A DNA stretch of 52,080 bases from a virus (Duplodnaviria > Caudoviricetes), in the IMG/VR virus record IMGVR_UViG_3300042363_000655, positions 1 through 52,080 of that record. One strand, written 5' to 3'. Position 1 is the stretch's first letter; each line of letters begins with the position of its first letter. The notes under the pieces were generated by a model. That model was not told the DNA's origin, made no database searches, and saw only the letters and a program-made list of their open reading frames with translations. Both the position numbers and the translations under genes were made by a program. This document shows positions 2,424 through 50,055 of the stretch, piece after piece.

Positions 2424-2481
2424 AGTTATATTAAACAAATGTTAAACCGAGGATCTAAGGACCTCACAAACTGTAAATCAA

Positions 2482-2889: not shown

Positions 2890-2892
2890 AAA

Positions 2893-2914: not shown

Positions 2915-2962
2915 TAGAGTATTAGTTCGTATATTAAATTTATTAAACAAGTTATAACAATC

Positions 2963-13121: not shown

Positions 13122-13122
13122 T

Positions 13123-13572: not shown

Positions 13573-13573
13573 T

Positions 13574-14200: not shown

Positions 14201-14202
14201 TT

Positions 14203-14505: not shown

Positions 14506-14517
14506 TTATATTAAAAT

Positions 14518-17478: not shown

Positions 17479-18247
17479 AATACATACATCAGGAGATTCT
17501 TTTGATAGAATACAAGCATTAAAAGACGCGTACAAAGGACAGACTGCTTATTTAGTTACCTGTGGACCTTCTCTATTGACACACGATAGAGATGCTCTAA
17601 TAGAGAAACTAGAAGGTAAGTTAGTTATTGCATGTAAACAGTCTTATGAATATATTAAAGAGGTAGTAGATTTTCATTTACTATCTGTCTACAATTACCA
17701 ACCTTACGAATACTTCTCTGAGAATACAATCAGGCATTGGCAATTAACTGCTATGAATATTCAAGGAGAGTTAGATAGAATACAGCAATGGAATCAACGA
17801 ATTGATTTAGCTATTCCAGTCTACTCTACTCCCTGGGTTACTAAAGACCAGACTACTGCTTATACTAGAAATTTTGATAACTGGAAATTATACGGTGAAG
17901 GTAAAATAGTATGGGGACCTGGTATAATGTATGAATCAGGATTTCCTCTAGCATTGCATTTAGGATGTACAGACATTGTAACTATTGGATGGGATATTGG
18001 AGACTTAAGTAAGTACCCTTCTAAGAACCTAATGTCAGTAGATGAGAATTGGATAGACCAGCATGCTAAAGAACTCTACAAAGTAGACGTAGGAGGAGGG
18101 CCTGAGTACGAAGAGCTTTTACATACGATAGAATGTACGGATAAAATGTACGATTGGTTCTTGGAAAATGAAATAAAAGTTCGTATCTTATCAGAATCAA
18201 ATCCTGCTGATGAAAGGTTTGAACGTATTACTTTAGAACAGTTATGA
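17447..18247 (+). CDS. Maf/DUF115-like glycosyltransferase-type protein
   Basis: YKGQTAYLVTCGPSL, LALHLGC..IVTIGWD. Confidence 0.7.
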   Translation: MNSATPSVLAKIHTSGDSFDRIQALKDAYKGQTAYLVTCGPSLLTHDRDALIEKLEGKLVIACKQSYEYIKEVVDFHLLSVYNYQPYEYFSENTIRHWQLTAMNIQGELDRIQQWNQRIDLAIPVYSTPWVTKDQTTAYTRNFDNWKLYGEGKIVWGPGIMYESGFPLALHLGCTDIVTIGWDIGDLSKYPSKNLMSVDENWIDQHAKELYKVDVGGGPEYEELLHTIECTDKMYDWFLENEIKVRILSESNPADERFERITLEQL

Positions 18248-19137
18248 TATTATTCCAAATGCACATAATGTGGTATGAAGCCGAGATGGTTAATGAAACT
18301 CTCGATTCAATACAGGCTGCTTTAGAACAAGCACCTGACCTAGATGTACGTTTAAAATTCTGTATTAACAAGCAGACATACTTAGAGAAACCAGAAGTAG
18401 GAACAGTAGATGAGATGGTAGATAAATTTATAAACCATCCATTAATGAGTAGAGTTGAAATCTGGGAGAAAGATGATAGGTCTGAATTTTATAATATAGC
18501 TGACTGGAGACGAGAGATATATAACCCAAAAGCTAAATATGTAGTTTGGGGTGAGACAGATACATTACTACCGGTAGACTTCTTCTATATTCTTCAGCAT
18601 ACTGAAATAAAAACACCACACCTACTTACCTTTGCTTCTAGACCAATGTGGGATAATAGCTGGGATATTGTTACGCATAAAAATCTACAGGGTTACAGTA
18701 AGCCATGTAAATGCGGAGATAACCATAGAGAGGATTGTATAGAGCTTTTAGAAGCTCCTTTTAAGTATAAGGATGTAATAACACAAGAGCAGTTAGATAG
18801 CTTTAATCAAGAAAGCGATATAGAGATGCAACAAGTACCGTTAAAGATTGACGGGTCTCTTTTATGTATCTCTTCCGGAGTACCTTATCCTTGGATACCT
18901 GCTGATATGCATTTTGTACGAGAAGATACTTGTGCAGAGAATTTCTTTAAAGCTAAGTTAATACCTCAAGTATGTATAACAACTAGACTAAAAGGACATA
19001 ACTACTGGCATCCAAAGAAGAGAGTGAATACATCAGCTACTCGAAATGATGAGTTGTTTAAAGTATACGCAAAGAAGAGTGAAGACGCAATGATAAAATT
19101 TCTAAGAGAAGTATATGAATCTAGTAACAATATATAG
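18244..19137 (+). CDS. GT-A-like protein
   Basis: VVWGETD motif; lies in the glycosylation cluster. Confidence 0.5.
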   Translation: MILFQMHIMWYEAEMVNETLDSIQAALEQAPDLDVRLKFCINKQTYLEKPEVGTVDEMVDKFINHPLMSRVEIWEKDDRSEFYNIADWRREIYNPKAKYVVWGETDTLLPVDFFYILQHTEIKTPHLLTFASRPMWDNSWDIVTHKNLQGYSKPCKCGDNHREDCIELLEAPFKYKDVITQEQLDSFNQESDIEMQQVPLKIDGSLLCISSGVPYPWIPADMHFVREDTCAENFFKAKLIPQVCITTRLKGHNYWHPKKRVNTSATRNDELFKVYAKKSEDAMIKFLREVYESSNNI

Positions 19138-19894
19138 GATAAGCGATTATAGCAATCCAGAGAAGGTTAAACCTGATTACGCGAGTAAAGAAGATTGCTT
19201 GAGAGTATATGTAAGAGAATTCACAAATAAAAACCTGATAGTTTTATGTGATAATGTTACAAAAGAAACTCATGAAATGGTTAAGAAGTATGCAGAAGAA
19301 GAAAACATATATCTTACTAAGAACGGTAATACAGGATCTTTTCTAGCTAGCTTACAACTAGCATATAATATAATTAAAGAAGGATTAGCACCTGAAGATA
19401 CCGTTTTCTATTTTCTAGAAGATGATTACCTACATAGGAGAGGAGCTTACTTTATCTTAATGGAAGCTTTTAGAGAACTAAACGCTGACTACGTAACACT
19501 TTATGATCATCCAGATAAATACCAGAACTTTAAAGACCCTAGATACGAATGGGGACATGGATTAGTAGACATAGAAGAAGATGGAATTAGAAAACCAGGA
19601 GTAATCTACAATGTAGGTAAGCAAGATACTATCTACATAAGTAAATCAACTCACTGGCGAACAGTAGACAGTACAACAATGACATGGGCTACTACAGCTA
19701 AGAATATTAAAGAGGATTATGAAGACCTTTATAATTTACACGAAGGACAGCCTTTACCAATGGGTGGGACTACCTTTAAGTTATTAGCCGAAAAAGGTAA
19801 AAAGCTTCTTAGTCCAATTACTGCATATTCAACTCATGCAGAAGAAAAATGGATGGCTTATTTTATTGACTGGAAAAAAGAATCATTATGCTAA
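19115..19894 (+). CDS. GT-A-like glycosyltransferase
   Basis: VLCDN, YFLEDDYLH, VTLYDHPDKY, STH. Confidence 0.7.
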   Translation: MNLVTIYRISDYSNPEKVKPDYASKEDCLRVYVREFTNKNLIVLCDNVTKETHEMVKKYAEEENIYLTKNGNTGSFLASLQLAYNIIKEGLAPEDTVFYFLEDDYLHRRGAYFILMEAFRELNADYVTLYDHPDKYQNFKDPRYEWGHGLVDIEEDGIRKPGVIYNVGKQDTIYISKSTHWRTVDSTTMTWATTAKNIKEDYEDLYNLHEGQPLPMGGTTFKLLAEKGKKLLSPITAYSTHAEEKWMAYFIDWKKESLC

Positions 19895-20718
19895 CACATT
19901 GTATTAGTACGTACAATAATCTACCGTACTTAAAACTAGCAGTAGAGTCTGTTAGAAAGAATAGCTACTTTAAAGATGCTCCATTTATTGTTCATGCAGA
20001 GAATTGCACAGACGGAACCTACCAATGGTTAGCTGATAATGGAGTAAAATACGACCTAACGATCTATATTAAAGACTTAGAACCTTCTGGATTAGGGCAA
20101 GGTATGAATTTTGTAGCTGAAAAATGCGAAACAGAATACATTAACTTCCTACATTCAGATTTCTACGTTACAGAGAATTGGGACCTAGAGCTACTTAAAG
20201 TACATGAAGCTAATCCTGATAAGAAGTTATGGGTTAACTCTTTTAGAATAGAACCTAATATGTTTAACTCTCCAACTCGTCATGGAACTTTACTAGTAGA
20301 GCCATCAGACTTTGGCAGTTATGCAAATGACTTTGATAAAGAAAGATTAGAAGAGTACGCTAAAGAGTTTGCTCTTCTAAATGACTTTCAGATACCAAAA
20401 GGAGAAGGAGTTTCTGGCTTAGTAAAGAAATCTGTTTGGGATGAAGTTGGAGGAAATGATCCTCTATTTGCTCCTACTAGTTGGGATGATATGGATTTGT
20501 TTTTGAGAATGAAAGAAGCAGGTGTTGAGTTTGTAATGCCGTCTAAATCTGTAGTATGGCATTTCGGAGCTAGAGGTAGTCACCGACTAGAAGAGAATGG
20601 AGGACAATCCTCAGAAAGACAGAAGAGAGCAGAGGCTGAGAATGTAAGAAAATTTTATAGTAAGTGGAATGGTCTACCAACCTTTGATGCTTACGGAATG
20701 ATAAATGGAATTAGATAA
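19888..20718 (+). CDS. glycosyltransferase family 2
   Basis: ISTYN, FLHSD, VGGND, DDMDLFLR, VWHFG. Confidence 0.88.
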   Translation: MLTHCISTYNNLPYLKLAVESVRKNSYFKDAPFIVHAENCTDGTYQWLADNGVKYDLTIYIKDLEPSGLGQGMNFVAEKCETEYINFLHSDFYVTENWDLELLKVHEANPDKKLWVNSFRIEPNMFNSPTRHGTLLVEPSDFGSYANDFDKERLEEYAKEFALLNDFQIPKGEGVSGLVKKSVWDEVGGNDPLFAPTSWDDMDLFLRMKEAGVEFVMPSKSVVWHFGARGSHRLEENGGQSSERQKRAEAENVRKFYSKWNGLPTFDAYGMINGIR

Positions 20719-21905
20719 TGGAAAAAATAACATTTTGTATTCCTAGTAAGAATAATCTAAGGTATTTAAAGACCTGTATTAAATCTATTAGAGAGAATGC
20801 ATTTAGACCAGATCATGATATAATCGTATTTGTAGATTCAGATAACGACGGCACAGTTGAATGGTTGCGTGAGAATAAAGATAAATACGAAGTAACTTAC
20901 TTTGTTAATCCTAAGCTAGGTAAAGAGCTTTACGGTATAGGAAAAGCATATGATTACTGTGTCGACAAAAGTACTACATCTGCTTTTATGATCTTCCATG
21001 CAGATATGATATTAGGTAAGAACGCAGACTTAAATGCATGGAATCAACTACAGAAGAAGATAGTAGTCTGCTCTACTCGAATAGAACCTCCTTTGCATCC
21101 AAATGCAGGAGAAAAGATATTAATGGACTTTGGAGTATGGCCGGAAGAATTTAAAGAAGAAGCTTTTAATGAGTTTGTATCTAGAGAGAATAACTCAAGT
21201 CAGGTAACAGAAGGAATCTTTGCACCATGGATGATGTATAAAGAAGACTACTCAACCCTAGGCGGACATGATCCTATTCTGAAATCAGCTAGAGAAGATT
21301 CAGATATCTTTAATAGAATGCTTTTAGCTGGGTTTAGCTTTATACAACCGTGGGCGAGTTTAGTATACCATTTTACAGGAAGAGGAGGACAATTCCAACA
21401 TGGAAGCGTAGGAGAGAAGAAAGATGAAGAATGGCAGCAGCTTATGAATAACTCTACTAGAGAGTTTATACGTAAATGGGGTTCTAACGTGAAACACACG
21501 TCGCTAATGAAGCCAATTGTAAGCCCTAAGTACAATATAGGTTTTGCAGTTAAATACTGTAATTTACAGTTATTAGACACATTAGAACCTTGGTGTGATA
21601 GAATCTATATAGATGATGAGATGGGAGTTCTATTTGCATCTTATTACGAATATGAACATAAAAGAACTAGTTACGACCTAAAGAAAAGAGTACTTACATT
21701 AGGATATCAGAATCCACATGAATACGACGATGTTGTTGTAGAGATTGATAGAAATACATTTAATAATCAAGACTTTCAGATATTGCAACAGCTTCCAGAT
21801 ATCTTACAGGAACAGGGACATCCGGGTAAGTTTAAGCTAGGTAATATGGTGATAATAGTTCATCAACTAGAAGAGCATCAAAATTCTCTAATACAAATAT
21901 CCTAA
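20718..21905 (+). CDS. glycosyltransferase family 2
   Basis: FCIPSKN, DSDNDGT, FHADM, LGGHD, EDSDIFNR, YHF. Confidence 0.88.
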   Translation: MEKITFCIPSKNNLRYLKTCIKSIRENAFRPDHDIIVFVDSDNDGTVEWLRENKDKYEVTYFVNPKLGKELYGIGKAYDYCVDKSTTSAFMIFHADMILGKNADLNAWNQLQKKIVVCSTRIEPPLHPNAGEKILMDFGVWPEEFKEEAFNEFVSRENNSSQVTEGIFAPWMMYKEDYSTLGGHDPILKSAREDSDIFNRMLLAGFSFIQPWASLVYHFTGRGGQFQHGSVGEKKDEEWQQLMNNSTREFIRKWGSNVKHTSLMKPIVSPKYNIGFAVKYCNLQLLDTLEPWCDRIYIDDEMGVLFASYYEYEHKRTSYDLKKRVLTLGYQNPHEYDDVVVEIDRNTFNNQDFQILQQLPDILQEQGHPGKFKLGNMVIIVHQLEEHQNSLIQIS

Positions 21906-28886: not shown

Positions 28887-29835
28887 CTATAAAATTATAT
28901 ACGTCACCTGGACTAAGCCTTATTTTAATAAGAATAACTTTACCGGAATAAAGAGCTACTTAAAAGATGGTAGCGAAATCTCTCAAGAGTATAAGCTAGA
29001 AGATTATGAAAAGCTTATGCAGATCTATAGCTTTACATCAGCTAAAAGACATACAGGTGCTCGTATAAAGATGTACACAGATACAGCTGGTTACGAATAT
29101 TACCGTAAAGAAAATATGCTGCAATACTTTGATGAAGTAGATGTAGACTTCCTTAACTCAGTTAATGCAGATAGCAGTATCGATCCAGCTAAGTTCTGGA
29201 CAAGCGGTAAGATTTTAAGCATATGTAATGAAGAGCCTCCTTTCTTATTTTTAGATACAGACTTCTTTATTCTAGATAAGATACCGGATTGGGTATTCGA
29301 AAAGGATGTTACTCATGCTCATTGGGAGCTACTTAGAGCTTGGCTTTATGTTGCAGAAGGAAGAGTTAAAGATGAATTCAAACTAGACATTCCAGAATTC
29401 TCAGAGACGATGTTAATACCTAATACCTCTTTCCTATTTATGAAAGATAATGATCTAGTAAGATCTATTCAAAAGAGGTATAAAGAGTTGCATTTACAGA
29501 TTGTGACTAAGGATTATAATTACGTACCAGATGAGTTATGGCTGATGACAGATCAGAATATTTTAGGATATATCTTACGACATAAGAATGCAAATGTAGG
29601 ACATGCTATTAATAAAATCTACATTCAGTTTGCAGATAACTTAGGTAGTAAAGTTGTAGGTAATACTCCTAGATGGACTCATTTTGATAATATAGACAAA
29701 CTACTGCCAGAAGTGAAATACCATCACGTCTGGTTTGAGAAAACACACCTACATCAGAACCCAGTATATAAAGAGACTGTTACTAGAGACTGGCGTTTGC
29801 GTATTAGTGAAAATTTAAAAGCATTAAGTTTATGA
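28879..29835 (+). CDS. DUF6734-like GT-A fold protein
   Basis: MYTD..G, FW..GK, PFLFLDTDFF, PNTS. Confidence 0.6.
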   Translation: MSNYKIIYVTWTKPYFNKNNFTGIKSYLKDGSEISQEYKLEDYEKLMQIYSFTSAKRHTGARIKMYTDTAGYEYYRKENMLQYFDEVDVDFLNSVNADSSIDPAKFWTSGKILSICNEEPPFLFLDTDFFILDKIPDWVFEKDVTHAHWELLRAWLYVAEGRVKDEFKLDIPEFSETMLIPNTSFLFMKDNDLVRSIQKRYKELHLQIVTKDYNYVPDELWLMTDQNILGYILRHKNANVGHAINKIYIQFADNLGSKVVGNTPRWTHFDNIDKLLPEVKYHHVWFEKTHLHQNPVYKETVTRDWRLRISENLKALSL

Positions 29836-30275
29836 TTTACTGGTTTACCGGACAGCCTGGAGCTGGAAAGACGACCTTAGCGTACATGCTATCCACCCAT
29901 TTATATAAGGATGCAATCAACGTTGACGGAGATGATATTAGAGAGATTTTTGATAACAAAGACTATTCAGAAGCTGGAAGGAGAAAGAATATAGAACTAG
30001 CTCAGAATATGGCTCATTTCCTCCATCATAAAGGCTACAACGTTTTTGTATCGCTTGTAGCACCTTATAAAGATCAAAGAGAAAGCTTCAAAGAGAAGCT
30101 AGGAAACGGTATAGTAGAGCTTTATGTACATGCCTTTGAAGATAGAGGACGTACTCAATTTCATGTAGCTAACTACGAACCACCTACAGAGAATTTTATT
30201 GATGTAGATACAACAAACGATACCCCTTTTCAATCTTATATGAAAATTAAAGAAAAGTTGGAACTCGACAAATAA
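29832..30275 (+). CDS. cysC: adenylyl-sulfate (APS) kinase
   Basis: YWFTGQPGAGKTT, VDGDDIR, DYSEAGR..N, VSLVAPY, YEPP. Confidence 0.9.
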   Translation: MIYWFTGQPGAGKTTLAYMLSTHLYKDAINVDGDDIREIFDNKDYSEAGRRKNIELAQNMAHFLHHKGYNVFVSLVAPYKDQRESFKEKLGNGIVELYVHAFEDRGRTQFHVANYEPPTENFIDVDTTNDTPFQSYMKIKEKLELDK

Positions 30276-30288
30276 AATCGTATCTTAA
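30257..30288 (+). promoter_or_regulatory. putative phage promoter GTTGG-N16-TCGTATCTTAA
   Basis: Repeated motif family. Confidence 0.55.
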
Positions 30289-30291
30289 AGT

Positions 30292-30693
30292 ATGAGTCAG
30301 AAATATTTAGCTACCGCAGCATTTCAATCTTCCTCAAATGAGGTAAAGTATTCTATGTTTATCGGTAGATGGCAACCTTGGCATGCTGGGCACCGCTGGT
30401 TGATCGATCAGAGATTAAACGAAGGTAAGAAGGTTTTACTAGCTATTAGAGATGTAGAACCTGATGAAAGAAATCCTTGGACACCTCAAGAAGTATTACA
30501 GAATCTAACACACGAGTTATTAGATTTGATACAAGAAGGACGTCTTAAGATTATTATCATTCCGGATATTGAATCTGTTAATATCGGACGAGGAGTTGGT
30601 TACGATGTTATTGAGCATGTACCACCAGAAGAAGTTAGAGAGATATCTGCTACTGCTGTCCGTAATAAGATGAAAGAGGAGGGTAAGTTATGA
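30292..30693 (+). CDS. HxGH nucleotidyltransferase (cytidyltransferase-like; possible minimal sulfate adenylyltransferase)
   Basis: FIGRWQPWHAGH, NP, GRGVGY, ISATAVR. Confidence 0.8.
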   Translation: MSQKYLATAAFQSSSNEVKYSMFIGRWQPWHAGHRWLIDQRLNEGKKVLLAIRDVEPDERNPWTPQEVLQNLTHELLDLIQEGRLKIIIIPDIESVNIGRGVGYDVIEHVPPEEVREISATAVRNKMKEEGKL

Positions 30694-30905
30694 TAGTAGA
30701 AAAGAAAAGACACATCGCTAAAACGATTAGCTATAGAGTAGTCAGTACTGCTATTGGATTTGCTACGATGTGGGCAGTAACTGGTTCAGTTAAATTTGGA
30801 GCAGCATTTGGAGTAGCAGAACTACTTTGGAAACCAATTCAGTATTATATACATGAACGTGTCTGGTACAGATGGATTAAGTACGGATTAAAAAAAGATA
30901 AATGA
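30690..30905 (+). CDS. DUF2061 family membrane protein
   Basis: RHIAKTISYR ... YYIHERVW. Confidence 0.85.
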   Translation: MIVEKKRHIAKTISYRVVSTAIGFATMWAVTGSVKFGAAFGVAELLWKPIQYYIHERVWYRWIKYGLKKDK

Positions 30906-31239: not shown

Positions 31240-31521
31240 ATGGACTTAAAGGAGATTATCACATCATGGCTTATAAAGAATAATCCTACTGAAACTCAGC
31301 AACAATTAGCTGTAGAGAGGTATGCAATATGTGAGCAATGTCCTTCTAGAACTAGTATGCTACTCCAGAAAAAGTGGACTGAGTATTGTTCAGAATGTGG
31401 ATGCCCTTTGCAAGGTAAAATATTTACTCCAAAGTATAATGGATGTCCTCTAGATAAGTGGAAAGATATCGAAGAGAAATATGTACCTAATTATACAAAA
31501 AATAAAAAGACTGTTATATGA
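31240..31521 (+). CDS. Cys-rich metal-binding protein (CxxC...CxxCGC...CP..KW) with C-terminal KKTVI tail
   Basis: Six conserved Cys; paralog of 42653-42886. Confidence 0.75.
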   Translation: MDLKEIITSWLIKNNPTETQQQLAVERYAICEQCPSRTSMLLQKKWTEYCSECGCPLQGKIFTPKYNGCPLDKWKDIEEKYVPNYTKNKKTVI

Positions 31522-32048
31522 TAGATCAGCTTATTCAGATTGATAACTTCTTTAAAAAACCAGATCAAATTAGGGCAATGGCTCTAAAGATGAAGTATAC
31601 TGCTTCAGATGAAACAACCGGATGGAAGGGATATCGAGCATTAGAACAATCTTCTTATAATGATGAATTAGTTGAGTATATAAAATCTAAGATAGATGGT
31701 TCATTTTACAATACTAACTTCGATACATACTTCCATTATACTTTAGAAGAGACAAAAAAAGAAGTATCCTCTTTCAGTAAGAATAAAATACATAGAGACT
31801 CCGGAAGGGACTATGCAGGGGTTATATACCTTAACCCAAACCCTCAACCAAACTCAGGAACAGTCTTCTACGATGATGACTATAGAGTTATACATACAGT
31901 AGAGAATGTATATAACCGGTTTGTATTTTACCCATCTAGAATCTTACATGCAGTAGAAAATCCTTTTGGAGACTCTATAGAGAATGGAAGACTAACCTTT
32001 ACTATTTTTGTAGGACTGCCACAGAAGAAAACTAAATCTATTCTATGA
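31518..32048 (+). CDS. 2OG-Fe(II) oxygenase
   Basis: IDNFF..PD, HRD, AGVIYL, GT.FY, NRFVFY...LH, RLT. Confidence 0.85.
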   Translation: MIDQLIQIDNFFKKPDQIRAMALKMKYTASDETTGWKGYRALEQSSYNDELVEYIKSKIDGSFYNTNFDTYFHYTLEETKKEVSSFSKNKIHRDSGRDYAGVIYLNPNPQPNSGTVFYDDDYRVIHTVENVYNRFVFYPSRILHAVENPFGDSIENGRLTFTIFVGLPQKKTKSIL

Positions 32049-32638
32049 TAGTTCAAAAGCTTATATTAACAGATTCATTAGAAGTATACAAAGCAACTTA
32101 TGACTGGAGATACTCAAAAGAGAGTCTTATACATAGAATAAAACAGAACAACTTCTTACTAGGATTGACAGATGTTAATACTACTGAGATAAAACTTCAG
32201 TCACCAGAGTTAGATTATATAAAGAACCTTGGGTATACTATTGCAAAACAATTACCAGGGTTGCCAGAAAATTGGAACGGTAGCTGGGTAGGGAAGACTT
32301 GGAGTTATATTCAACGTCCTGATTCTATAGCTCCATCACAAAACTGGCATACACATAATGCAGCTATAAACTTTCCAGATAGTCCGATAAACGCTCCGGT
32401 ACTAACAGATTGGACTTATTGTCTATATGTACAAATACCTTCAGACTTGCAAGGAACCGAAGGAGCACTTTCTCTTATGGACTCTAATAATAAAGTTGTC
32501 AATATAGTTCCTCAAGAAGGAGATATTTTCTTCTTCAAAGGAGATGTTAGACATAAACCAAGACTGTCCCCTTCTTCTAAAGAAGATCGAATTGCTCTAT
32601 GTTCTAATATCAGTTTTAACATACCTAGCCTTATTTAG
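32045..32638 (+). CDS. 2OG-Fe(II) oxygenase-like (HxH type)
   Basis: WHTH, YVQIP, EGAL, PQEGDIFFF...VRH, RIA...N. Confidence 0.8.
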   Translation: MIVQKLILTDSLEVYKATYDWRYSKESLIHRIKQNNFLLGLTDVNTTEIKLQSPELDYIKNLGYTIAKQLPGLPENWNGSWVGKTWSYIQRPDSIAPSQNWHTHNAAINFPDSPINAPVLTDWTYCLYVQIPSDLQGTEGALSLMDSNNKVVNIVPQEGDIFFFKGDVRHKPRLSPSSKEDRIALCSNISFNIPSLI

Positions 32639-32683
32639 TTGCTACAACTATTTATAATAAACTCAATAAATTAAAATCACAAT

Positions 32684-34603
32684 ATGAAAGCTGTTTTAAT
32701 AGGAAGCGATTTTTTGTTAGATGATAACGGAAATGCAAAGATACTAGAGATGAATACAAATGCGAGCGTATACCAAAGTATGCTTCCTCATTTAGACTTC
32801 TCAGCCGTTACAGAATTAATAGAACAGAACTCAATCAATGAGGTTGTTTATATCTTCAGCAATGAACATATAGTAGTAGACCCTAATATGAGATTGAATA
32901 TAACACTGGGTAGTAGATTACAACAAATCTGCCAAACATTAGGTATAGCATACACACCGTATCAGGTAAATGTAAATGCTACGACAGTTCCTTATATTGA
33001 AGACGCTCCTAATAAATTAATCTTTAGACAAGCTTTCGATTCAACAGCTTTAATTGATGATGAATATTGTGCAGATAAATTAAACTTACAAGAACTTATT
33101 AAAGACGAATCATATACCGTAGGTACTTATGCTTCATCTACTTTACATAATATAGATACATTAAACAGCCTTACTCCTAAAGAACCTAATATTATAGTAA
33201 AGGCAAAGTATCCACATTATGACGGATTACTATTCCCAGAAGCACACTACCTTACATCTACTGAACAGTTAGATGAATTAAAAGGAGCTTACGGGACTGA
33301 CTATTATATTCAAGAATTTATCAATTCAGATAATAACCTAGTACAAGGAAAATATTCAATTATAAGATCTTTTGATTTAGTTTACGGAAGTACTTTAGAG
33401 GTGTTACACCTAGGATCTTATCATCAAAGCTCTCAAGTAACTACAGACATTTGGCCTAATGAATATGTGAGTGGATCTACTAAGATGACAACTAAGTCAA
33501 AATTAAAATGGATTACAAAACCTAGTCAGAATCAAAAAAGAACTTATCATTTAGATAATGATACAAAAGTAGTAGCAGCTAATGGAGAGTACTTATTACC
33601 GTCTCAACTATATCAAGGACTTCAAGTAAAGTCTGCAGCTTTTAGTAACTTCCCAACAGGGTCTATTGTTGATATCTTTGCACATACTTCCTCTTTCCAG
33701 GAAATGTCTGATAGCCTTGTAATAAACACAGCTGAAGTAATTGACCTATATAGTGCTAGTTTAGAAGGAGTTTATTTACATGTTACATTAGAAGACGGTA
33801 CAAACTGGGATGATTCAACTAAGTCAACTATATACGTAGAAGTAAGCGGAAGTACTAAGACACAGTTTAAAGCACTAGCGCAGGTTGATTTAGGAGATAA
33901 AATTATTGTAGTTAACCATAATACAAATGAGCTAGAAAAAAGAGAAGTTACAGAATTAGAACCTCTTTTTGATACAAAGGTAATTTACGAAGTAGATGTT
34001 GAAGACCAAGATATCTTCTTATCTGTACTAGATGAAGAAGAAGGTATTGCGTTAGTACAACACAATCCATGTTGGTGTAACGGATATAATTGTGGATGGT
34101 GGAGCTGTCAAAGTTATTGCACACAATGTAATAGCTGTTTTATAGGAGAAACACTTATTGAAACAGTACAAGGACAGAAGCAAATTAAAGATGTAGAGGT
34201 TGGAGATCTTATAGACTCATACGACATAATTACAAATACTATTGTTACCAAGAAAGTAACAGGTCTTTGGAAGTCTGAATACGATAATAACTTGGTAATT
34301 ATCAACGGTATTAAAACTCAAGCAACAGTCGGCCATCCTTTTGCAGTTAAAACTATAGAAGGAGATATCAGCTTTGCTGCTTACGATCCAGAAGCAGATA
34401 AAGGACATTTAGACCATGGAGTTGAAATAGAACAATTAGAAGTAAATGGAAAGTATGTCAATATAAAAGGAGAGTGGAAGCTTATTGAAAGTATAGAATT
34501 AGAACCATATAAGGGAATAGTATATAACTTAGCAGTAGAAGACACTCATACATTTATCGCAAACGATATAATAGTACACAATTTCGGAGAGAAAAAAGCA
34601 TAA
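32684..34603 (+). CDS. circularly permuted ATP-grasp ligase fused to Hint domain, Cys/Trp-rich peptide and second Hint domain
   Basis: N-terminal GSDFLLD..G...ILEMNTN, IIVK..YP, IQEFI; Hint-1 ends IYEVDVEDQDIF...VQHN; Hint-2 CFIGETLI...TVGHPF...VYNLAVEDTHTFIANDIIVHN. Confidence 0.85.
   Translation: MKAVLIGSDFLLDDNGNAKILEMNTNASVYQSMLPHLDFSAVTELIEQNSINEVVYIFSNEHIVVDPNMRLNITLGSRLQQICQTLGIAYTPYQVNVNATTVPYIEDAPNKLIFRQAFDSTALIDDEYCADKLNLQELIKDESYTVGTYASSTLHNIDTLNSLTPKEPNIIVKAKYPHYDGLLFPEAHYLTSTEQLDELKGAYGTDYYIQEFINSDNNLVQGKYSIIRSFDLVYGSTLEVLHLGSYHQSSQVTTDIWPNEYVSGSTKMTTKSKLKWITKPSQNQKRTYHLDNDTKVVAANGEYLLPSQLYQGLQVKSAAFSNFPTGSIVDIFAHTSSFQEMSDSLVINTAEVIDLYSASLEGVYLHVTLEDGTNWDDSTKSTIYVEVSGSTKTQFKALAQVDLGDKIIVVNHNTNELEKREVTELEPLFDTKVIYEVDVEDQDIFLSVLDEEEGIALVQHNPCWCNGYNCGWWSCQSYCTQCNSCFIGETLIETVQGQKQIKDVEVGDLIDSYDIITNTIVTKKVTGLWKSEYDNNLVIINGIKTQATVGHPFAVKTIEGDISFAAYDPEADKGHLDHGVEIEQLEVNGKYVNIKGEWKLIESIELEPYKGIVYNLAVEDTHTFIANDIIVHNFGEKKA
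33548..34066 (+). other. Hint domain 1 (His at the Cys1 position, intact terminal His-Asn)
   Basis: HLDNDTKVVAANG aligns with CFIGETLIETVQG; block F/G present; no TxxH block B seen. Confidence 0.7.
34067..34135 (+). other. inter-Hint peptide PCWCNGYNCGWWSCQSYCTQCNS
   Basis: 23 codons between the HN of Hint-1 and the Cys1 of Hint-2; 6 Cys, 3 Trp, 2 Tyr. Confidence 0.75.
34136..34582 (+). other. Hint domain 2 (Cys1, TxxH block B, terminal His-Asn, Phe at +1)
   Basis: CFIGETLI...I.DVEVGD; ATVGHPF; IIVHN followed by FGEKKA. Confidence 0.9.
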
Positions 34604-34620
34604 TAGTAAAAGATAAGAAT

Positions 34621-34734
34621 ATGTCAAATACAATAAGAACAGTAGTACAACCAACTACACCTGCAAACGATCAGAAAGTAAAAGAAGTTATTCAATCAAT
34701 CGTAACATTGATAAAGAATAAACATTTAAGCTAA
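34621..34734 (+). CDS. 37-aa peptide MSNTIRTVVQPTTPANDQKVKEVIQSIVTLIKNKHLS (not in ORF track)
   Basis: Fills the gap between the Hint gene and the sulfotransferase; amphipathic C-terminal helix. Confidence 0.6.
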   Translation: MSNTIRTVVQPTTPANDQKVKEVIQSIVTLIKNKHLS

Positions 34735-34749
34735 TATTAAAAAATAGTT

Positions 34750-35454
34750 ATGCTTGTTGGAAATAAGTTTTTGTTTTTAAAGATACCTAGAACTGCAACT
34801 ACAGCTTTTGAGCGTTCTTGCTTTCTTGCAAATATAGAAGTTAGGTACCCTACCGATGAAATACTCTCTCAGAAGAGAGCAGCAAACGGTCAGTCTTCTC
34901 TAAGGCATTCACATGAACCGGTTAGTAAAATCCGAGAAGTTTTCGGAGATAGCTATCCCATAATTGCAGTAAGAAGAGATGACCTAGAGAGATTTATCTC
35001 TGCCTGGAAATTTTTTATAAAAGAGCTTGAAAAGGTAGATGTAGAAGCTGCTTCTATTCTAAAAGAAGTAGACAATAATACCTTTATAAACACCTGGATA
35101 AAAGAGCTTGGTTATTCTGCTGAGTTAGTTGAAATAGAAAAACTAATGGCATTTACAACAAGCCTTGTTGGGTACCCAGTTAAGTATAGTGCAAACTTAT
35201 TTACAATAATGTCTGCCGCAATGTCAGGCCCTTCTCGATGGCATCAAAATGACCCAAGTATTATATACTTTGATTTTAAGAATTTAAGTGAGTTAGAAAG
35301 GTATGTAAGAGAAACTGTAGATCCTTCTTTTGAACTTATTATATCCAACCATACAAGATTCCAGACAACTAAGTTAACACCTACAGATGACTTAAAGGAA
35401 TTTTATTATAAATGGGTAGAACCTGTCTATAAAAAGAACGTTACTTTAATCTAA
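34750..35454 (+). CDS. sulfotransferase family 2-like protein
   Basis: FLKIPRTATTA (5'-PSB), VRRDDLERFISAW (3'-PB). Confidence 0.8.
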   Translation: MLVGNKFLFLKIPRTATTAFERSCFLANIEVRYPTDEILSQKRAANGQSSLRHSHEPVSKIREVFGDSYPIIAVRRDDLERFISAWKFFIKELEKVDVEAASILKEVDNNTFINTWIKELGYSAELVEIEKLMAFTTSLVGYPVKYSANLFTIMSAAMSGPSRWHQNDPSIIYFDFKNLSELERYVRETVDPSFELIISNHTRFQTTKLTPTDDLKEFYYKWVEPVYKKNVTLI

Positions 35455-35936
35455 TGAAAATATATAATCACTTTTTTAAAGAGGATTTATTTGTAGAGAT
35501 TTGTGAATTTGCTAAGAAAAGTATCTATACAAAAGTAACTGGTAAGATTTATAACTACAAAGGAAAACATATTCAAGGTGGTTTAAGAAGAAGGATAGAA
35601 AAAGCCTTTAAGGAATATAACTTAACAGGAACTGTAGATACTCTCAGAGTACAATGCTTGGATACTAGCATCCAAGTTACAGAAAACTACCATCATCATG
35701 GACAGATTTATAAAGAGAACTTAGTATGTTTTCTTAATGAAGATTTCACCGGAGGAGAATTTGAATACATAGGAGAAAATACTGAGATAGTATCACCCAG
35801 TACCAATACTGCTTTAATATTTGGACCTGAATTAGAGCACAAAGTACTACCAGTAACTGAAGGAGTAAGGTATACATTAGTTGCTTTTTTAGCAGAAAAT
35901 TCATATCTTATTAAACAAGACAAGTCTTTAATATGA
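35454..35936 (+). CDS. 2OG-Fe(II) oxygenase (prolyl-hydroxylase-like)
   Basis: FLNEDFTGGEF, LIF...EHKVLPVTEGVRYTLV. Confidence 0.85.
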   Translation: MKIYNHFFKEDLFVEICEFAKKSIYTKVTGKIYNYKGKHIQGGLRRRIEKAFKEYNLTGTVDTLRVQCLDTSIQVTENYHHHGQIYKENLVCFLNEDFTGGEFEYIGENTEIVSPSTNTALIFGPELEHKVLPVTEGVRYTLVAFLAENSYLIKQDKSLI

Positions 35937-37462
35937 AAAAAATAGTTATACTAGGAGGAGGTACTGCTGGATGGATGACAGCTTTACAGGTGAGAAAGTT
36001 ATTCGATAAAGCTGATATAACTTTAATAGAAAGTACCTCTATAGGTATATTAGGAGCTGGTGAAGGATCAGTACCTACCCTTCCGGCTTTTTTAAGAAGC
36101 CTTGATATAAACTTAGGAGAATTTAAACAAGAATGTGATGCTACTTTTAAGTTAGGAATTAATTTTGAAAATTGGAATGGAGATAATAAAAACTACCTAC
36201 ATCCTTTCCTACCCACACCAGGCGATTCTCTAGACTTTAAGCAACTAAACGAACAAAATATAAGTTCAAAAGAAGGTATTCCTAATACAAACAGCGCTTA
36301 CTATCTTCTAAATTTATTAGCAAACGAAGAAGATCTTGATGAAAAACTACCAGTAAACAATTTAATACGTAATAAGAAAAGTCCTTACTATAGAGAGAAT
36401 AATCAAATTAAAGGATCTACTGGATTTTCTTTTCACTTCAATGCAAGAAAGCTAGCAAAATACTTACGTACAAAAGGTGAAGAAAGAGGTATAAAGGTAG
36501 TAGATGGAGAATTTGATAAAGCATTTATAGACGAAAGAGAATACATCACAGGAATATCACTTAAGGATGGAAGCTATTTCGAAAGCGATTTTATTTTCGA
36601 CTGTAGTGGATTTAAAAGATTACTAATAGGTAGCACTTATAAAACAGAATGGGTCTCTTACGACAAACACCTTACTGTTAACTCAGCAATCCCTTTCTTC
36701 CTTCCACAAACAGAGAAAGTAATTAGACCAGAAACTAGAGCAATCGCAATGAAGTATGGTTGGATGTGGCAGATACCGGTAGCAGGTAGATGGGGATGTG
36801 GATATATCTACGACGATCATTTTATAGACCAAGCTCAAGCAAAACTAGAAGTAGAAGAGATGTTAGGACATTCTATAGACAGCGACAAAGTGTTTAAATT
36901 TAATGCAGGAAGGTATAAAGAAGCTTGGAAGAAGAATTGTATAGCAGTAGGACTATCCTCAGGCTTTACAGAACCATTAGAGGCTACTTCTCTTATGATA
37001 GCAATGAATCAGTTACTTGCCTTAGATCCTACCTCTATGTTTATAGATAATCAAATGAGTAGAGATTTGTATAATAAAGCTATAGAAGATCTAAACGAAG
37101 AGACTATGAATTTTCTATACTACCATTATATGACTAGAAGAACAGATACAGAGTTCTGGAGCACTTATACTACTCGAACAGAAATCCCTGAACGGCTACA
37201 AAAAGTATTGGAGTTGTGGAAAATTAGACTTCCAAAAAATACTGACCTATCATTAGTTGGACATACTGGCTCTTTTGATACTTACAGCTGGTATTTAGTA
37301 GGTGCCGGCATAGGTCACTTAAGTATGGATTTAATAAAACAAGAAAACAAAGCATTAGGTTTAGATCAAAAACTAAGTACATTTAAGCAGCAGCTGTTAT
37401 CTCGTTTAGATAATATACGTGAAAACTCTATAGATAATATACAAGTAGGTTATGGATCCTAA
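35933..37462 (+). CDS. flavin-dependent tryptophan halogenase family protein
   Basis: GGGTAGW, GAGEGS, FKLGI.F.NW, FIFDCSGF, GWMWQIP, GFTEPLEATS. Confidence 0.92.
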   Translation: MKKIVILGGGTAGWMTALQVRKLFDKADITLIESTSIGILGAGEGSVPTLPAFLRSLDINLGEFKQECDATFKLGINFENWNGDNKNYLHPFLPTPGDSLDFKQLNEQNISSKEGIPNTNSAYYLLNLLANEEDLDEKLPVNNLIRNKKSPYYRENNQIKGSTGFSFHFNARKLAKYLRTKGEERGIKVVDGEFDKAFIDEREYITGISLKDGSYFESDFIFDCSGFKRLLIGSTYKTEWVSYDKHLTVNSAIPFFLPQTEKVIRPETRAIAMKYGWMWQIPVAGRWGCGYIYDDHFIDQAQAKLEVEEMLGHSIDSDKVFKFNAGRYKEAWKKNCIAVGLSSGFTEPLEATSLMIAMNQLLALDPTSMFIDNQMSRDLYNKAIEDLNEETMNFLYYHYMTRRTDTEFWSTYTTRTEIPERLQKVLELWKIRLPKNTDLSLVGHTGSFDTYSWYLVGAGIGHLSMDLIKQENKALGLDQKLSTFKQQLLSRLDNIRENSIDNIQVGYGS

Positions 37463-37835
37463 TTTTACTTTACTAATAGTCCCAGACAAAGGTACTGGGG
37501 TTTTTGCAAACAAAGAATATACTGAGGGAGAATTATTGGGAGGTTTTTTACAAAACACTCCACCCAAGGTAGGACGTAAAGCTACAGATACATTATGGGA
37601 AACTGGAGTCTTAGGAAGATACTGTAATCATAGTGAAGTAGCTAATGCAACTATGGTTGAAATAGATGGAGGATTTGTCTTATATGCAAATAGGAATATC
37701 GATAGAGGAGACGAAGTAACTGTAAACTATTATGCTGTAGAGTTTAAATTAAACATACCCAGAGGCACACATGTAAATACTACCTTTGTGAGGAAGGATT
37801 ATAAAAATTACGGCAAGACTATATGCGAATATTAG
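37452..37835 (+). CDS. SET domain protein (methyltransferase)
   Basis: KGTGVFA, RYCNHSEVAN, ANRNIDRGDEVTVNY. Confidence 0.9.
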   Translation: MDPNFTLLIVPDKGTGVFANKEYTEGELLGGFLQNTPPKVGRKATDTLWETGVLGRYCNHSEVANATMVEIDGGFVLYANRNIDRGDEVTVNYYAVEFKLNIPRGTHVNTTFVRKDYKNYGKTICEY

Positions 37836-38386
37836 TATACGCTTTACCTAGAACAGGTTCAAATAACTTAACACATTACATTGCTAACTCTCTACATTAT
37901 AGAGAGATTATAGAACCGTATAACGAACATAGATTTTGGGATACAGATATAACTGAGTCTGATATTTGGAAGAAAGATAATGTAGTAGTTAAAATGATAA
38001 TCGGACAAGGTGATTATTGGTACGAAGATATAAAATCAAAATTCGATAAAGTAGTTGTACTCTATAGAGAGAATATTAAAGAACAAGCTGAGAGTTATGC
38101 TCATGCAGCTAAGTCTGTAGATTGGCATTTACCCTATGTTTACAATCCTGATAATATCTCTGAAGAAGAATACAATAAAGCTTATACAAAAATAGGAAGT
38201 AGAGTAGGTGAATTAAAAAGTATAGATGCCTTTCAAGTAACTTATGAGAACCTATACCTTTCCGGAACAGATAAAGATAGGTTAGATGAGTACATAGGTA
38301 TAACTAATAAGTCTTTTCGCTTTATGTTAGACAGTCGGAATAAGTATAGAAGAGATAGCACAGGAATAAAAAAGACTTTAATTTAG
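37823..38386 (+). CDS. sulfotransferase (Stf0-like P-loop fold)
   Basis: ALPRTGSN, EPYN, LYREN..EQAES, VTYENL. Confidence 0.75.
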   Translation: MRILVYALPRTGSNNLTHYIANSLHYREIIEPYNEHRFWDTDITESDIWKKDNVVVKMIIGQGDYWYEDIKSKFDKVVVLYRENIKEQAESYAHAAKSVDWHLPYVYNPDNISEEEYNKAYTKIGSRVGELKSIDAFQVTYENLYLSGTDKDRLDEYIGITNKSFRFMLDSRNKYRRDSTGIKKTLI

Positions 38387-48882: not shown

Positions 48883-50055
48883 ATGAAGATAGTCCATAGT
48901 TATATCCCAACAGCTTTCGGAGATAAACCAGCTCCAGATCTAATCTGGAAAGAGTTGATGTATGGTCAGATGTTAAGCGTATTGCTAGCTCAAAGAGAGT
49001 TTGGCAATATTAGCTTATATACAAACGAACATATTGCTCGTCAGATAAAAGATGTAGGACTACCTTATACAGATATTGATACAACTGTACTTGAAGGAGT
49101 AGATACTAAAAGCTATACATACCCTAAGATGAGAGTATTTAGAGAGATAGGAGAACCTTATCTTCATATCGATACGGATACTTACATCTTTAAGAAGCTA
49201 GACTTTAGTAAGAGTAAGAGCCCGATAGTATATGCTCATTCGGATCAAGCTGTAGAGTTTAGCGAGAAGGTTGACCCAGATGTATTGAGTCAGTATATAA
49301 ACAATATTTCAAAATGCTATACTAGTTTATTCTTTTTGCATGATGAGGAGTTTAAATCATTTAACCCTCCTAATGTAAATCTAATGAAGATACCTAACGG
49401 TAACTTAACTTATGTTAGAGACCCTAAGCTCTTTATAGAAGCAACTAATAAAGCATTAACGTATTACTATAAGCATAAGAGTATTATCGATAGAAATACT
49501 TATGGAGGAGTTTATGTAGAGCAGATGATTATACATTTGTATCTAATGGAATTAAGTCCGGAGTATAAAGAAGCAGCTGATGAAAATAATCATTTGATGT
49601 GTGATAATATTTTTATGCATATAGATTATGGCTCTAAGGATAAGACAGCGGACTATCTTAACTATAACTTTCCTTTTAAGTTTAAACTACATACATTAAA
49701 GGATGGTTATATATCAGAACTAGAAGAAGCTAAGAAAGTAGCTACTAACTTAGGGTTTAAGTTAGAGAAAGATGTTTACAAAGAGTATACAATAGAGAAG
49801 AAAGAAGATTTGGTTAAGTATTTTAATCATGACTTCTTAGGAGTATTACACCCTAGCTTTAATAAATGGGCTCCTCTATTTGAATGTCTTACAATAGGAA
49901 TTATAGCAGAGCAGTTTGGAGTAGAGTATATAAACCGAGTTCATAGTTACTACAAGAAGACTTATCCAGGCTATTACTTACCTCTAAAATCAAGAGGAGA
50001 GAAACTATACGAAGAGTTAACAGGCTTTGAATTCGGAGTAAAGAGCGTTATATAG
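48883..50055 (+). CDS. DUF6734-like GT-A fold protein ending KSVI
   Basis: MLSVLLA, LYTN, YPK, PYLHIDTD, IPN, VEQ; similar to 28879-29835. Confidence 0.65.
   Translation: MKIVHSYIPTAFGDKPAPDLIWKELMYGQMLSVLLAQREFGNISLYTNEHIARQIKDVGLPYTDIDTTVLEGVDTKSYTYPKMRVFREIGEPYLHIDTDTYIFKKLDFSKSKSPIVYAHSDQAVEFSEKVDPDVLSQYINNISKCYTSLFFLHDEEFKSFNPPNVNLMKIPNGNLTYVRDPKLFIEATNKALTYYYKHKSIIDRNTYGGVYVEQMIIHLYLMELSPEYKEAADENNHLMCDNIFMHIDYGSKDKTADYLNYNFPFKFKLHTLKDGYISELEEAKKVATNLGFKLEKDVYKEYTIEKKEDLVKYFNHDFLGVLHPSFNKWAPLFECLTIGIIAEQFGVEYINRVHSYYKKTYPGYYLPLKSRGEKLYEELTGFEFGVKSVI

Follow-up and report, generated by a model that had tools for sequence, protein, structure and literature searches.

In graspetides, an ATP-grasp ligase works on a ribosomal peptide supplied as a separate leader-core precursor, and conserved Asp/Glu acceptors are engaged in omega-ester or omega-amide bonds. 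Borosins carry the modifying enzyme, a SAM-dependent N-methyltransferase, fused to its own core peptide, which is released by a protease. Permuted ATP-grasp ligases have an Arg-x-Asp motif, with Arg, and the engineered TWIN design places a C-cleaving intein before and a Cys1 intein after a short target. For the pTWIN vectors, the available part of the source specifies a target with an N-terminal Cys (PMC7784762). Type A bacterial intein-like (BIL) domains, which have no +1 nucleophile, can splice by aminolysis, although cleavage products dominate in the portion of the account available (PMC4031507), and the accessible text on Tetrahymena BIL2 describes isopeptide splicing through a Lys epsilon-amine (PMC8616854). 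YgiC, a permuted ATP-grasp enzyme, is a peptide-spermidine ligase (PMC11762307). In cyanophages, dioxygenase arrays and clusters of dioxygenase, halogenase, sulfotransferase and PAPS genes have been proposed, in the part of the source at hand, to modify peptides or fibre-like proteins (PMC2938197).

The window analysed here, a 52,080-nucleotide stretch of viral DNA (IMGVR_UViG_3300042363_000655), encodes one lake-water virus protein that combines a predicted ATP-driven ligase, two intein-like domains (Hint1 and Hint2) and a six-Cys peptide (Table 1). The initial annotation, made from the sequence alone, had described this anatomy, and the ORF, its length of 639 aa and the motifs were found where it placed them; it had missed the conservation of the lysine tail and the 37-aa gene downstream. 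Logan contigs show that the ORF did not arise by misassembly: one covers positions 32500-34943 with 1 difference from the window sequence, a second 32774-34943 with 0 differences, and no joints were found; the best holder of the sequence may be the source sample. A Hint2-less variant of the gene was not seen in 4 runs, in contigs of a kind that lose rare variants, and a single RNA run represented a related strain at low depth, with 9/30 bins covered.

Table 1. Features of the ligase-Hint locus (positions in the window).
Feature	Position	Strand	Basis
APS kinase, cytidylyltransferase-like protein, DUF2061; untagged	29832..30905	+	
Small Cys-rich tagged protein	31240..31521	+	homologs in 74/80 loci
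2OG-Fe(II) oxygenase / DUF6445, tagged	31518..32048	+	
2OG-Fe(II) oxygenase-like, tagged	32045..32638	+	PHROG E 4e-7; Pfam weak
639-aa ORF: ligase, two Hints, peptide and tail	32684-34603	+	motifs confirmed
Circularly permuted ATP-grasp, residues 1-287	32684..33544	+	AF2, Foldseek, VIA, conservation
Hint1, residues 288-461, predicted C-terminal-only cutter	33545..34066	+	model, structure match, conservation
Cargo peptide, residues 462-484, six Cys, three Trp	34067..34135	+	sequence
Hint2, residues 485-633, type A BIL-like, optional	34136..34582	+	profile match, motifs
Six-residue tail with Lys637, Lys638, then stop	34583..34603	+	sequence, family counts
Unannotated 37-aa ORF, amphipathic helix, invariant His35	34621..34734	+	conservation, complex prediction
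Sulfotransferase-like, tagged	34750..35454	+	Pfam E 1.2e-3, PHROG E 5e-5
2OG-Fe(II) oxygenase, tagged	35454..35936	+	
Tryptophan halogenase family protein, untagged in this copy	35933..37462	+	E 6e-109
SET-domain protein	37452..37835	+	
Tagged 187-aa protein	37823..38386	+	no significant family match

We favour, at a probability of roughly one half, a reading in which the ligase is fused to its own cargo, Hint1 frees that cargo and Hint2 splices the six-Cys peptide onto the lysine tail. All the chemistry in this reading is deduced from computed features, namely three folds and their motifs, an optional Hint2, lysine counts, even cysteine numbers, a partner gene and shared tags. The locus resembles graspetides in pairing an ATP-grasp with a ribosomal peptide, in which a Lys would be the probable nucleophile; in contrast to graspetides, residues 462-484 contain no Asp/Glu acceptor, the cargo is fused rather than separate, the small partner gene lacks a core, its product being modelled as a structural helix, the ligase is permuted rather than canonical, and release is predicted to be by a Hint. 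It also resembles borosins, where the modifying enzyme is fused to its core, but here the enzyme has an ATP-grasp fold instead of being an N-methyltransferase, and a Hint, not a protease, is predicted to bring about self-release.

The ATP-grasp fold was modelled with AF2 at a pLDDT of 94 (residues 1-287), and the top Foldseek matches were yeast glutathione synthetase (E 4.5e-7), YjfC, YgiC and GspS; the VIA alignment with YgiC covered 200 residues at Z 9.4 and rmsd 4.2. The unpermuted RimK and ArgX aligned only from model residue ~50 onwards, which fits a circular permutation, and the Asp and Glu-x-Asn strands stand ahead of the pre-ATP-grasp domain as in the GSS/GspS/YgiC clade, so the annotated ATP-grasp with its N-terminal D..ExN motif and permuted order was upheld. 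D9, E22, N24, R115, D125, K173 and R228 are near-invariant; among 128 diverse members, E22 and N24 are present in all 128, D9, R115 and R228 in 127 and K173 in 126. The permuted fold, conserved Asp and Glu-x-Asn are common to YgiC/YjfC, glutathionylspermidine synthetase, eukaryotic glutathione synthetase and Cp1B, but identity to this clade is 10-16% with Z only 8-9, and the phage chain begins at the Asp-bearing strand, whereas the clade's targets align from residue 42-322 on. Further differences are the cargo of its own, a separate helix that is seemingly needed, and Gly in place of the Arg of Arg-x-Asp (Gly7 here, shared by at least 90% of 100 close relatives), for which the invariant Arg228 may stand in. 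Residues 1-288, Hint1 and the 37-aa ORF gave no significant family in Pfam, NCBIfam or PHROGs (the last searched with the whole protein and the ORF), and in a PDB sequence search with the protein only Hint2 was matched. In the ESM Atlas, unnamed clusters came first and ATP-grasp families from rank 7, which we treat as a lead only.

The 37-aa gene lies after the ligase gene in 202/204 loci. Its product and the ligase reached a predicted complex score of 0.82, against 0.27 for the best of 3 controls, at a mark attained by 116/157 solved pairs and 2/215 mismatched pairs; a split-off helix may, however, pass this test through likeness to solved ATP-grasp structures. The complex runs share at least 89% of contacts, with a partner pLDDT of 87. 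The 37-aa protein is thus predicted to be a subunit supplying the helix that the ATP-grasp chain lacks, and the next gene would likely complete the permuted ligase. The same helix is fused to a Hint-less ATP-grasp in P0224 (E 1.8e-5, best of 4426 targets), which is one sequence on one contig with Gln for Glu22; no locus was found for it. A role for the 37-aa peptide as a trans-acting leader or substrate was set aside: the helix lies against every second residue of the sheet (6, 8, 10, 12; odd positions in 225-233), and Asp9 and Arg228 lie outside the predicted interface. Shorter stand-alone forms were also sought, and the 7 proteins retrieved resemble fragments or frameshifts.

Residues 288-461 had no Pfam match. 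In the AF2 model of residues 1-484 (pLDDT 85), this region matched inteins (Foldseek E 6e-8), and VIA superposed model range 286-461 on NpuDnaB over 139 residues at Z 17.1 and rmsd 1.9, so the Hint assignment made earlier for residues 289-461 held. Structural position 1 is Tyr288 or His289, neither of which is a nucleophile; the His annotated there is found in 61/64 close relatives and varies in the wider family. The annotated terminal His-Asn (His460-Asn461) and absent block B His were confirmed; the block F His is replaced by Asp443, with Asp in 64/64 close relatives and His in only 19/128 diverse members. Hint1 has the fold and terminal His-Asn of class 1, 2 and 3 inteins but none of their distinguishing residues (Cys/Ser at position 1; a block B His paired with a +1 nucleophile; Cys at the fourth position of block F), the residues at these sites being Tyr288/His289, Ser381, Glu436 and Pro462. 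Of the 437 family members, 426 have His-Asn where Hint1 should end, and 11/437 lack it. With no nucleophile and a retained His-Asn, cleavage at the C-terminus only, as annotated, probably fits, and Hint1 would likely cut after Asn461 to free the cargo.

The same lack of a position-1 nucleophile, block B His and block F His would also suit an inert Hint1 scaffold, with the Cys stretch as a linker that permanently binds metal or serves for docking and the protein as a hub for tagged enzymes that releases no peptide; the predicted partner helix contacts Hint1 too, and the tags of the neighbouring enzymes persist in clades without the Cys peptide. We regard this alternative as very unlikely, because His-Asn is kept while the rest of Hint1 drifts, in 243 members the peptide ends the chain instead of linking two parts of it, its AF2 model has no confident fold (pLDDT about 42), and even counts of 6, 8, 10 and 12 Cys suit disulfides better than four-ligand metal sites. 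The number of cysteines is even in 267/270 single-Hint cargoes, and the Cys-rich two-Hint forms contain six in 61/65 and eight in 4/65. In agreement with the expectation set out in the initial annotation, the inter-Hint peptide varies in sequence at fixed Cys spacing while the His-Asn ends of both Hints are kept. At most one Cys occurs in 64/393 cargoes, and hence the Cys peptide is not the constant of the family. The 23-residue cargo begins with Pro and contains no Lys, Asp or Glu; any Asp/Glu is present in the cargo of 41/65 two-Hint and 187/243 one-Hint forms.

The constant is instead a lysine, found in all 393 cleanly parsed cargoes (366/366 with a normal end and 27/27 S74 forms), counts that omit 11 members lacking His-Asn, 20 placed in an open-Hint bin and 13 that were long or could not be parsed. 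All 270 single-Hint cargoes contain Lys, where composition predicts 80 without it. One-Hint forms with a terminal Lys have exactly one Lys after the last Cys in 156/160 cases, and S74 forms have one between the last Cys and the chaperone in 25/27. In Cys-rich forms with an extra Hint, the inter-Hint peptide contains Lys in 0/70 and the tail at least two in 70/70. A Lys close to the C-terminus is, however, common in this setting: among 3098 unrelated ORFs, the last six residues contained at least one Lys in 2371 and at least two in 951. We noticed this lysine-count rule first and then tested it on the same data: in a tree test that took in 88/217 representatives, the second Lys went with the extra Hint in the same direction in 6/6 independent pairs (two-sided sign test, median p 0.031, range 0.031-0.063). 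Cys-poor extra-Hint forms have a single tail Lys in 60/64, and therefore the two-Lys rule is not family-wide. Vint-type Hint ends without His-Asn had a spacer Lys in 3/20 only, a bin that includes about 7 parsing failures. As a control for Lys after His-Asn, a search for Hint2 relatives outside the family yielded 1 locus, itself a family member, and the locus ORFs held only two stand-alone Hints.

Hint2 matched Intein_splicing (residues 485-633, E 3.2e-10) and carries the features of type A BILs, namely Cys485 as Cys1, Thr548-x-x-His551, His632-Asn633 and Phe634 in place of a +1 nucleophile, bearing out the Cys1 Hint with TVGH that had been annotated. C485, T548, H632 and N633 are kept in 64/64 close relatives, H551 in the 23 two-Hint rows examined, and Cys/Ser/Thr occurs at +1 in 0/65 Cys-rich two-Hint forms. 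The C. thermocellum type A BIL (PDB 2lwy) matched by profile at E 5e-9, and the best PDB sequence match was BIL2 of the Tetrahymena BUBL1 locus (PDB 6tmm, 6y75; E 5e-11). Unlike type A BILs, Hint2 is embedded in a short cargo downstream of a ligase and another, one-sided Hint, and up to three such domains occur in tandem with spacers mostly <12 residues. BIL2 has ubiquitin-like flanks and no need for ATP, in contrast to the Cys peptide, six-residue Lys tail and fused ATP-grasp here. Hint2 is optional and was repeatedly gained or lost: 270/426 members have no extra Hint, most relatives lack Hint2 or have an S74 chaperone instead, and the extra-Hint state changes 16 times on a tree of the N-terminal part against a shuffled mean of 66 (S74 changes 8 times).

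Given the lysine-count pattern, Hint2 likely excises itself and reconnects the six-Cys peptide with the lysine tail, possibly via one of the lysines; one free Lys would then remain for the ligase, and the rejoined two-Hint product would match the cargo of one-Hint relatives. Since the two-Hint forms have an additional Lys, we slightly favour an isopeptide bond with either tail lysine, as in Tetrahymena BIL2, over the type A BIL route through the alpha-amine of Phe634. The earlier claim that a Cys1 Hint lacking a +1 nucleophile is unable to splice normally was too strong in view of type A BIL aminolysis, as reported in the accessible portion of PMC4031507. The same text, in which BILs chiefly cleave, would suit a Hint2 that merely cleaves or stays as a passenger, so that the ligase would act solely on the lysine tail, with the Cys peptide either freed separately or kept attached through folded Hint2; in many relatives the cargo is indeed a Lys or a few residues (64/393 are Cys-poor, as noted above; a single Lys makes up the tail in 45/64). 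This is unlikely, since every Cys-rich two-Hint form retains the Cys pattern and the second Lys tracks Hint2, which cleavage alone leaves unexplained.

The initial annotation had proposed a TWIN-like precursor, in which Hint1 frees an N-terminus and Hint2 forms a thioester, so that the 23-mer cyclises head to tail, polymerises or passes to an outside amine. The arrangement does resemble TWIN, with a C-cleaving Hint upstream and a Cys1 Hint downstream of a short target, and a thioester is plausible given Cys485, Thr548 (64/64) and His551 and a mostly small residue before Cys485 (Gly 23, Ser 13, Ala 9 of 65); the available text on BIL2 also describes transfer of its N-extein to other proteins (PMC8616854). 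We nevertheless consider this reading improbable. The freed cargo starts with Pro, and intein-mediated ligation requires an N-terminal Cys according to the part of PMC7784762 at hand; Cys follows Hint1 in 1/426 members, plus 17 in which it is Cys1 of a directly adjoining further Hint. The second Hint, unlike that of TWIN, keeps its Asn, and His632-Asn633 conserved in 64/64 means that its C-terminus is not blocked. Moreover, the Lys kept by all other parsed cargoes would be lost from the 23-mer, since it is located downstream of Hint2 and the inter-Hint peptide has none in 70/70, and most relatives lack Hint2 with no conserved change replacing it.

In the favoured reading, the single lysine left free on the rejoined cargo is the likely site at which the ATP-grasp would attach a carboxylate. 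Alternatively, the ligase could use the alpha-amine that C-terminal-only cleavage by Hint1 leaves free beside it, or activate the C-terminus of the cargo to give a lariat or chain, the Lys then serving for recognition or tailoring, by SET or 2OG enzymes for instance. A SET gene is in the cluster, and in 151/243 single-Hint cargoes the final Lys is at the terminal or penultimate position; however, the +1 residue after Hint1 is of all 20 types, with Pro commonest (110/426), a poor fit for a conserved nucleophile, the last cargo residue varies widely across the family, and one clade has its Lys in mid-peptide, all of which makes this alternative unlikely. As carboxylate donor, we tentatively put a virion surface protein first; the tagged C-termini of neighbouring enzymes are a weaker candidate, the cargo's own C-terminus is somewhat less likely than these, and a small molecule is the least likely.

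The surroundings support the RiPP-like setting proposed earlier, with oxygenases, a halogenase and sulfotransferase-like proteins as neighbours. One C-terminal tag is common to the oxygenases and sulfotransferase-like proteins, and the tagged 187-aa protein has what we take to be a sulfotransferase-like N-terminal motif. These enzymes, together with the halogenase, probably tailor the cargo, and the APS kinase, cytidylyltransferase-like and DUF2061 genes probably supply PAPS. The cyanophage clusters contain the same kinds of tailoring gene, and the available part of that report names neither a ligase-Hint-peptide gene nor a shared C-terminal tag (PMC2938197). A broader and doubtful extension is that this is a widespread conjugation system of large aquatic phages, in which a two-chain ATP-grasp would fix a hypervariable, disulfide-rich, halogenated or sulfated mini-peptide to a target via one lysine and then cut itself away, while mobile Hints in the cargo would splice out via a spare lysine to give isopeptide-spliced peptides.

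If true, this would be an undescribed viral way to make and attach modified peptides, a ribosomal-peptide pathway with enzyme, protease and core in one chain, and would provide a substrate and a logic for the phage gene clusters with 2OG oxygenases, halogenases and sulfotransferases, which are common but unexplained. The system would also offer a natural one-sided Hint, tandem Hints a few residues apart and possibly lysine-dependent splicing, useful for protein ligation. A literature search by title and abstract start, with few subscription journals in its scope, found no description of a ligase-Hint-peptide system. A pattern-limited search of cultured phages found only a helicase intein, and a first GTDB scan, likewise limited by its pattern, contained 0 relatives among 18 matches. 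A second GTDB pattern scan returned 1 relative among 67 matches, on a probably viral 2.8-kb contig in a MAG.

The ligase gene of the window, an open reading frame recovered with zero or one difference and zero joints on independent contigs from lake-water metagenomes, carries the motifs listed in the initial annotation. Given that Pfam detected only the last Hint of the query protein (E 3.2e-10), the remainder was structurally modelled. The model of residues 1–287 (pLDDT 94) aligned from residue 1 with glutathione synthetases, YgiC/YjfC and GspS, whereas the unpermuted RimK and ArgX were alignable only from residue ~50 onward. In the model of residues 1–484 (pLDDT 85), residues 286–461 matched inteins (Foldseek E 6e-8; by VIA, Z 17.1, rmsd 1.9, 139 aligned). 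These model matches and the late alignment of the unpermuted enzymes confirm the layout originally claimed: a permuted ATP-grasp, Hint1, a 23-residue six-Cys peptide, Hint2 and a six-residue tail.

Coordinates of features in the window and at one related locus
Feature	Position	Remarks
ATP-grasp/Hint1/peptide/Hint2/tail gene	32684-34603	639 residues
37-aa ORF 3' of the ligase gene	34621-34734	
Seventh tagged ORF	48883-50055	390 aa, lying 14 kb off the cluster; without PHROG match
Glycosyltransferase-like and sialic-acid-type synthesis ORFs	10400-21905	long series, judged by eye
DNA polymerase, then Hsp20-, GroES- and GroEL-like genes	21-4884	polymerase PHROG E 5e-80; others by eye
Separate Cys1 Hint ORF	L101:12724-13224	166 aa; ends His-Asn-Lys-Asn-Leu; ~2 kb from a family gene

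Sequence searches yielded 437 distinct full-length relatives, and the family loci lie on viral contigs, the longest reaching 335 kb; GTDB contributed one relative-bearing MAG contig (2.8 kb), and the cultured phages searched contained zero relatives. The ATP-grasp and Hint1 are the family constant. D9, E22, N24, R115, D125, K173 and R228 are conserved in 126–128 of 128 diverse members, and Hint1 terminates with His-Asn in 426/437. The His reported at Hint1 position 1 holds for close relatives (61/64) and is not kept beyond them, neither Cys nor Ser being conserved there across the wider family; the block B His is missing and the block F His is mostly replaced by Asp. By established intein chemistry, a Hint lacking the N-terminal nucleophile is limited to, at most, C-terminal cutting via Asn cyclisation (accessible part of PMC4031507). 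From selection on His-Asn, we infer that Hint1 cuts at its own C-terminus. The penultimate His is replaced by Tyr, Ser, Ala, Gly or Asn in the relatives P0146, P0154, P0157, P0200 and P0202 and at loci L091, L093, L103 and L243, with the last position likewise varying (Ser or Asn) in P0146 and P0157; the penultimate-His variants are natural tests of the need for cleavage. An additional ~140–170-residue domain lies within Hint1 or the preceding linker in P0190, P0225, P0265 and L246–L252, with His-Asn retained. Two ATP-grasp paralogs without a Hint, P0148 and P0203 (291 and 283 aa; one sequence each), have hydrophobic C-terminal ends resembling the tag described below; in P0203 the catalytic Glu is Gly.

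Among the 426 members ending Hint1 in His-Asn, the cargo, namely whatever stands C-terminal of Hint1, is just a peptide in 243, a peptide plus an S74-like chaperone in 27 and includes one to three extra Cys1 Hints in 123; 20 were binned as having a terminal Hint without His-Asn (Vint-type), ~7 of these being parsing failures, and 13 have an unparsed C-terminal part. Seven S74-like forms compared with Pfam gave one match above the cut-off, two weak matches and four without a match. In a tree built from the N-terminal part (217 representatives), the extra-Hint state changed 16 times (shuffled mean 66) and the S74 state 8 times. Furthermore, P0065 and the query type are 47–61% identical in Hint2 compared with 34–43% in the N-terminal part, and four other members carry Hints at this position merely 29–38% identical to the query Hint2. 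Judged on these comparisons, Hint2 is an optional module that was inserted or lost, on several occasions, between the tail and the last Cys; by its own sequence it is an ordinary type A bacterial intein-like domain (BIL). Some members (P0215, P0238, P0245, P0249, P0261; L096, L100, L102, L104, L116, L138) have a Vint-type last Hint without His-Asn, whose conserved extension stops close to an Arg-Gln pair; the spacers preceding it are mostly without Lys. The L081–L160 clade has up to three tandem Cys1 Hints with spacers of 0–12 residues, +1 often Arg/Lys and an His-Asn-Lys end; it has no Cys peptide, yet retains tagged enzymes and the helix gene.

An even number of Cys is found in 267/270 single-Hint cargoes (258 of them with 6, 8, 10 or 12) and in all 65/65 inter-Hint peptides. 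This suggests disulfides, and the peptide would accordingly act in an oxidising, probably extracellular place; no more than one Cys is present in 64/393 cargoes. S74 chaperones typically belong to virion fibres, and in 25/27 S74 forms a single Lys lies between the last Cys and the chaperone. Graspetide-type cross-links are unlikely, Asp/Glu in the cargo being unconserved. Lys is present in all cleanly parsed cargoes (366/366 and 27/27), including 270/270 single-Hint cargoes, where composition predicts 80 without it; it is the last or second-last residue in 151 of 243 peptide-ending members and, in one clade, a mid-peptide residue. Past the last Cys, one-Hint forms whose Lys is terminal have exactly one Lys (156/160), and Cys-rich extra-Hint forms have none in the inter-Hint peptide (0/70) and two or three in the tail (70/70). 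This post hoc Lys-count rule agreed with 6/6 independent tree pairs (median p 0.031) in a test of 88/217 rows excluding Cys-poor, S74 and internal-Lys forms. Against the rule, Cys-poor multi-Hint forms have a single tail Lys in 60/64, and unrelated ORFs of these loci have at least one Lys near the end in 2371/3098 and at least two in 951/3098; Hint2-type domains from unrelated proteins, sought as a control, were not found. Read most simply, these counts call for a product in which a single free Lys is joined to the Cys core, in which case Hint2 would have to rejoin peptide and tail.

The two Hints flanking the 23-mer recall TWIN, an engineered two-intein design, and the initial annotation proposed that the peptide is likewise released, which would allow head-to-tail cyclisation, polymerisation or ligation to another molecule. 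Intein-mediated ligation requires an N-terminal Cys, with the downstream intein blocked via a change of its Asn (PMC7784762, accessible part). However, the residue that a Hint1 cut would free is Pro in the query, and +1 spans all 20 residue types family-wide; Hint2 retains its terminal His-Asn in 64/64 close relatives; and the 23-mer is without the conserved Lys. A TWIN-like route is thus improbable. As to rejoining by Hint2, type A BILs can rejoin through a freed alpha-amine, with cleavage dominant (accessible parts of PMC4031507 and PMC7664689). The best PDB match of Hint2 is Tetrahymena BIL2, which rejoins through a Lys epsilon-amine (PMC8616854, as far as accessible); such a route would explain the spare tail Lys.

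Immediately downstream, at most 70 bases past the stop, 202/204 distinct loci from four clades have a 24–60-aa ORF (one match doubtful); in the other two, genes are truncated and the ORF lies 87–100 bases downstream. His35 of the 37-aa protein is invariant (87 aligned). Its predicted complex with the ligase scored 0.82 (best of 3 controls, 0.27), with at least 89% contact agreement between runs and partner pLDDT 87; the score mark is reached by 116/157 solved and 2/215 mismatched pairs, and a split-off helix pair may pass through likeness to solved structures. The modelled helix crosses every second residue of the central sheet and seems to run antiparallel to the first strand; the N-terminal part pairs with residues 244–253 and contacts Hint1. 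The RimK and ArgX alignments end at residues 216/294 and 206/281, where in those enzymes a helix precedes the Asp strand; the 37-aa protein is therefore likely that ATP-grasp helix, split off and predicted to bind the ligase. The same helix forms the C-terminus of Hint-less P0224 (E 1.8e-5; single sequence, Gln for Glu22).

In the 80 closest loci, the ligase gene is accompanied by 2OG oxygenases (79 and 69), a small Cys protein (74), a sulfotransferase-like protein (73) and a Trp halogenase (63), with APS kinase and a cytidylyltransferase-like protein frequent. A C-terminal Ser/Thr-hydrophobic-hydrophobic tag ends 298/508 ORFs of the chosen core clusters versus 8/586 others, and 7/79 ORFs of the window, of which six fall within 31240-38386. 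A looser pattern is enriched near the gene in each of the four locus sets, also for the clade lacking Cys peptides: it was found in 272/468, 110/471, 180/518 and 85/332 ORFs within 3 kb and in 5/245, 11/123, 11/124 and 3/112 beyond 6 kb. The tag is absent from the ligase (0/57) and helix (0/43) genes, with APS kinase at 2/22. No virion genes were recognised within the window.

From the observed folds, motifs, counts and gene order, we propose that Hint2 would splice out, tagged enzymes would tailor the cargo, the ligase would join a carboxylate to the free cargo Lys and Hint1 would free the 52-kDa enzyme part; we give this whole chain a probability of roughly 0.5. The ligation would resemble that of YgiC, a peptide-spermidine ligase (accessible part of PMC11762307; further fold kin are named in that of PMC12568646). 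The protein falls outside TWIN, canonical inteins (for Hint1), graspetides and borosins. Literature searches on phage Hint plus ATP-grasp, phage RiPPs with these enzymes and phage tandem Hints, covering mostly non-subscription papers, found no description; the accessible part of PMC2938197 describes arrays of dioxygenases in phages, and clusters that combine them with halogenases, sulfotransferases and PAPS enzymes, without a ligase-Hint-peptide gene, and the word 'intein' is absent from PMC11118758. At L126, L139, L143, L149 and L150, ligase-Hint and helix genes have hardly any tagged enzymes, or none, in their vicinity; this gene pair may be the minimal unit.
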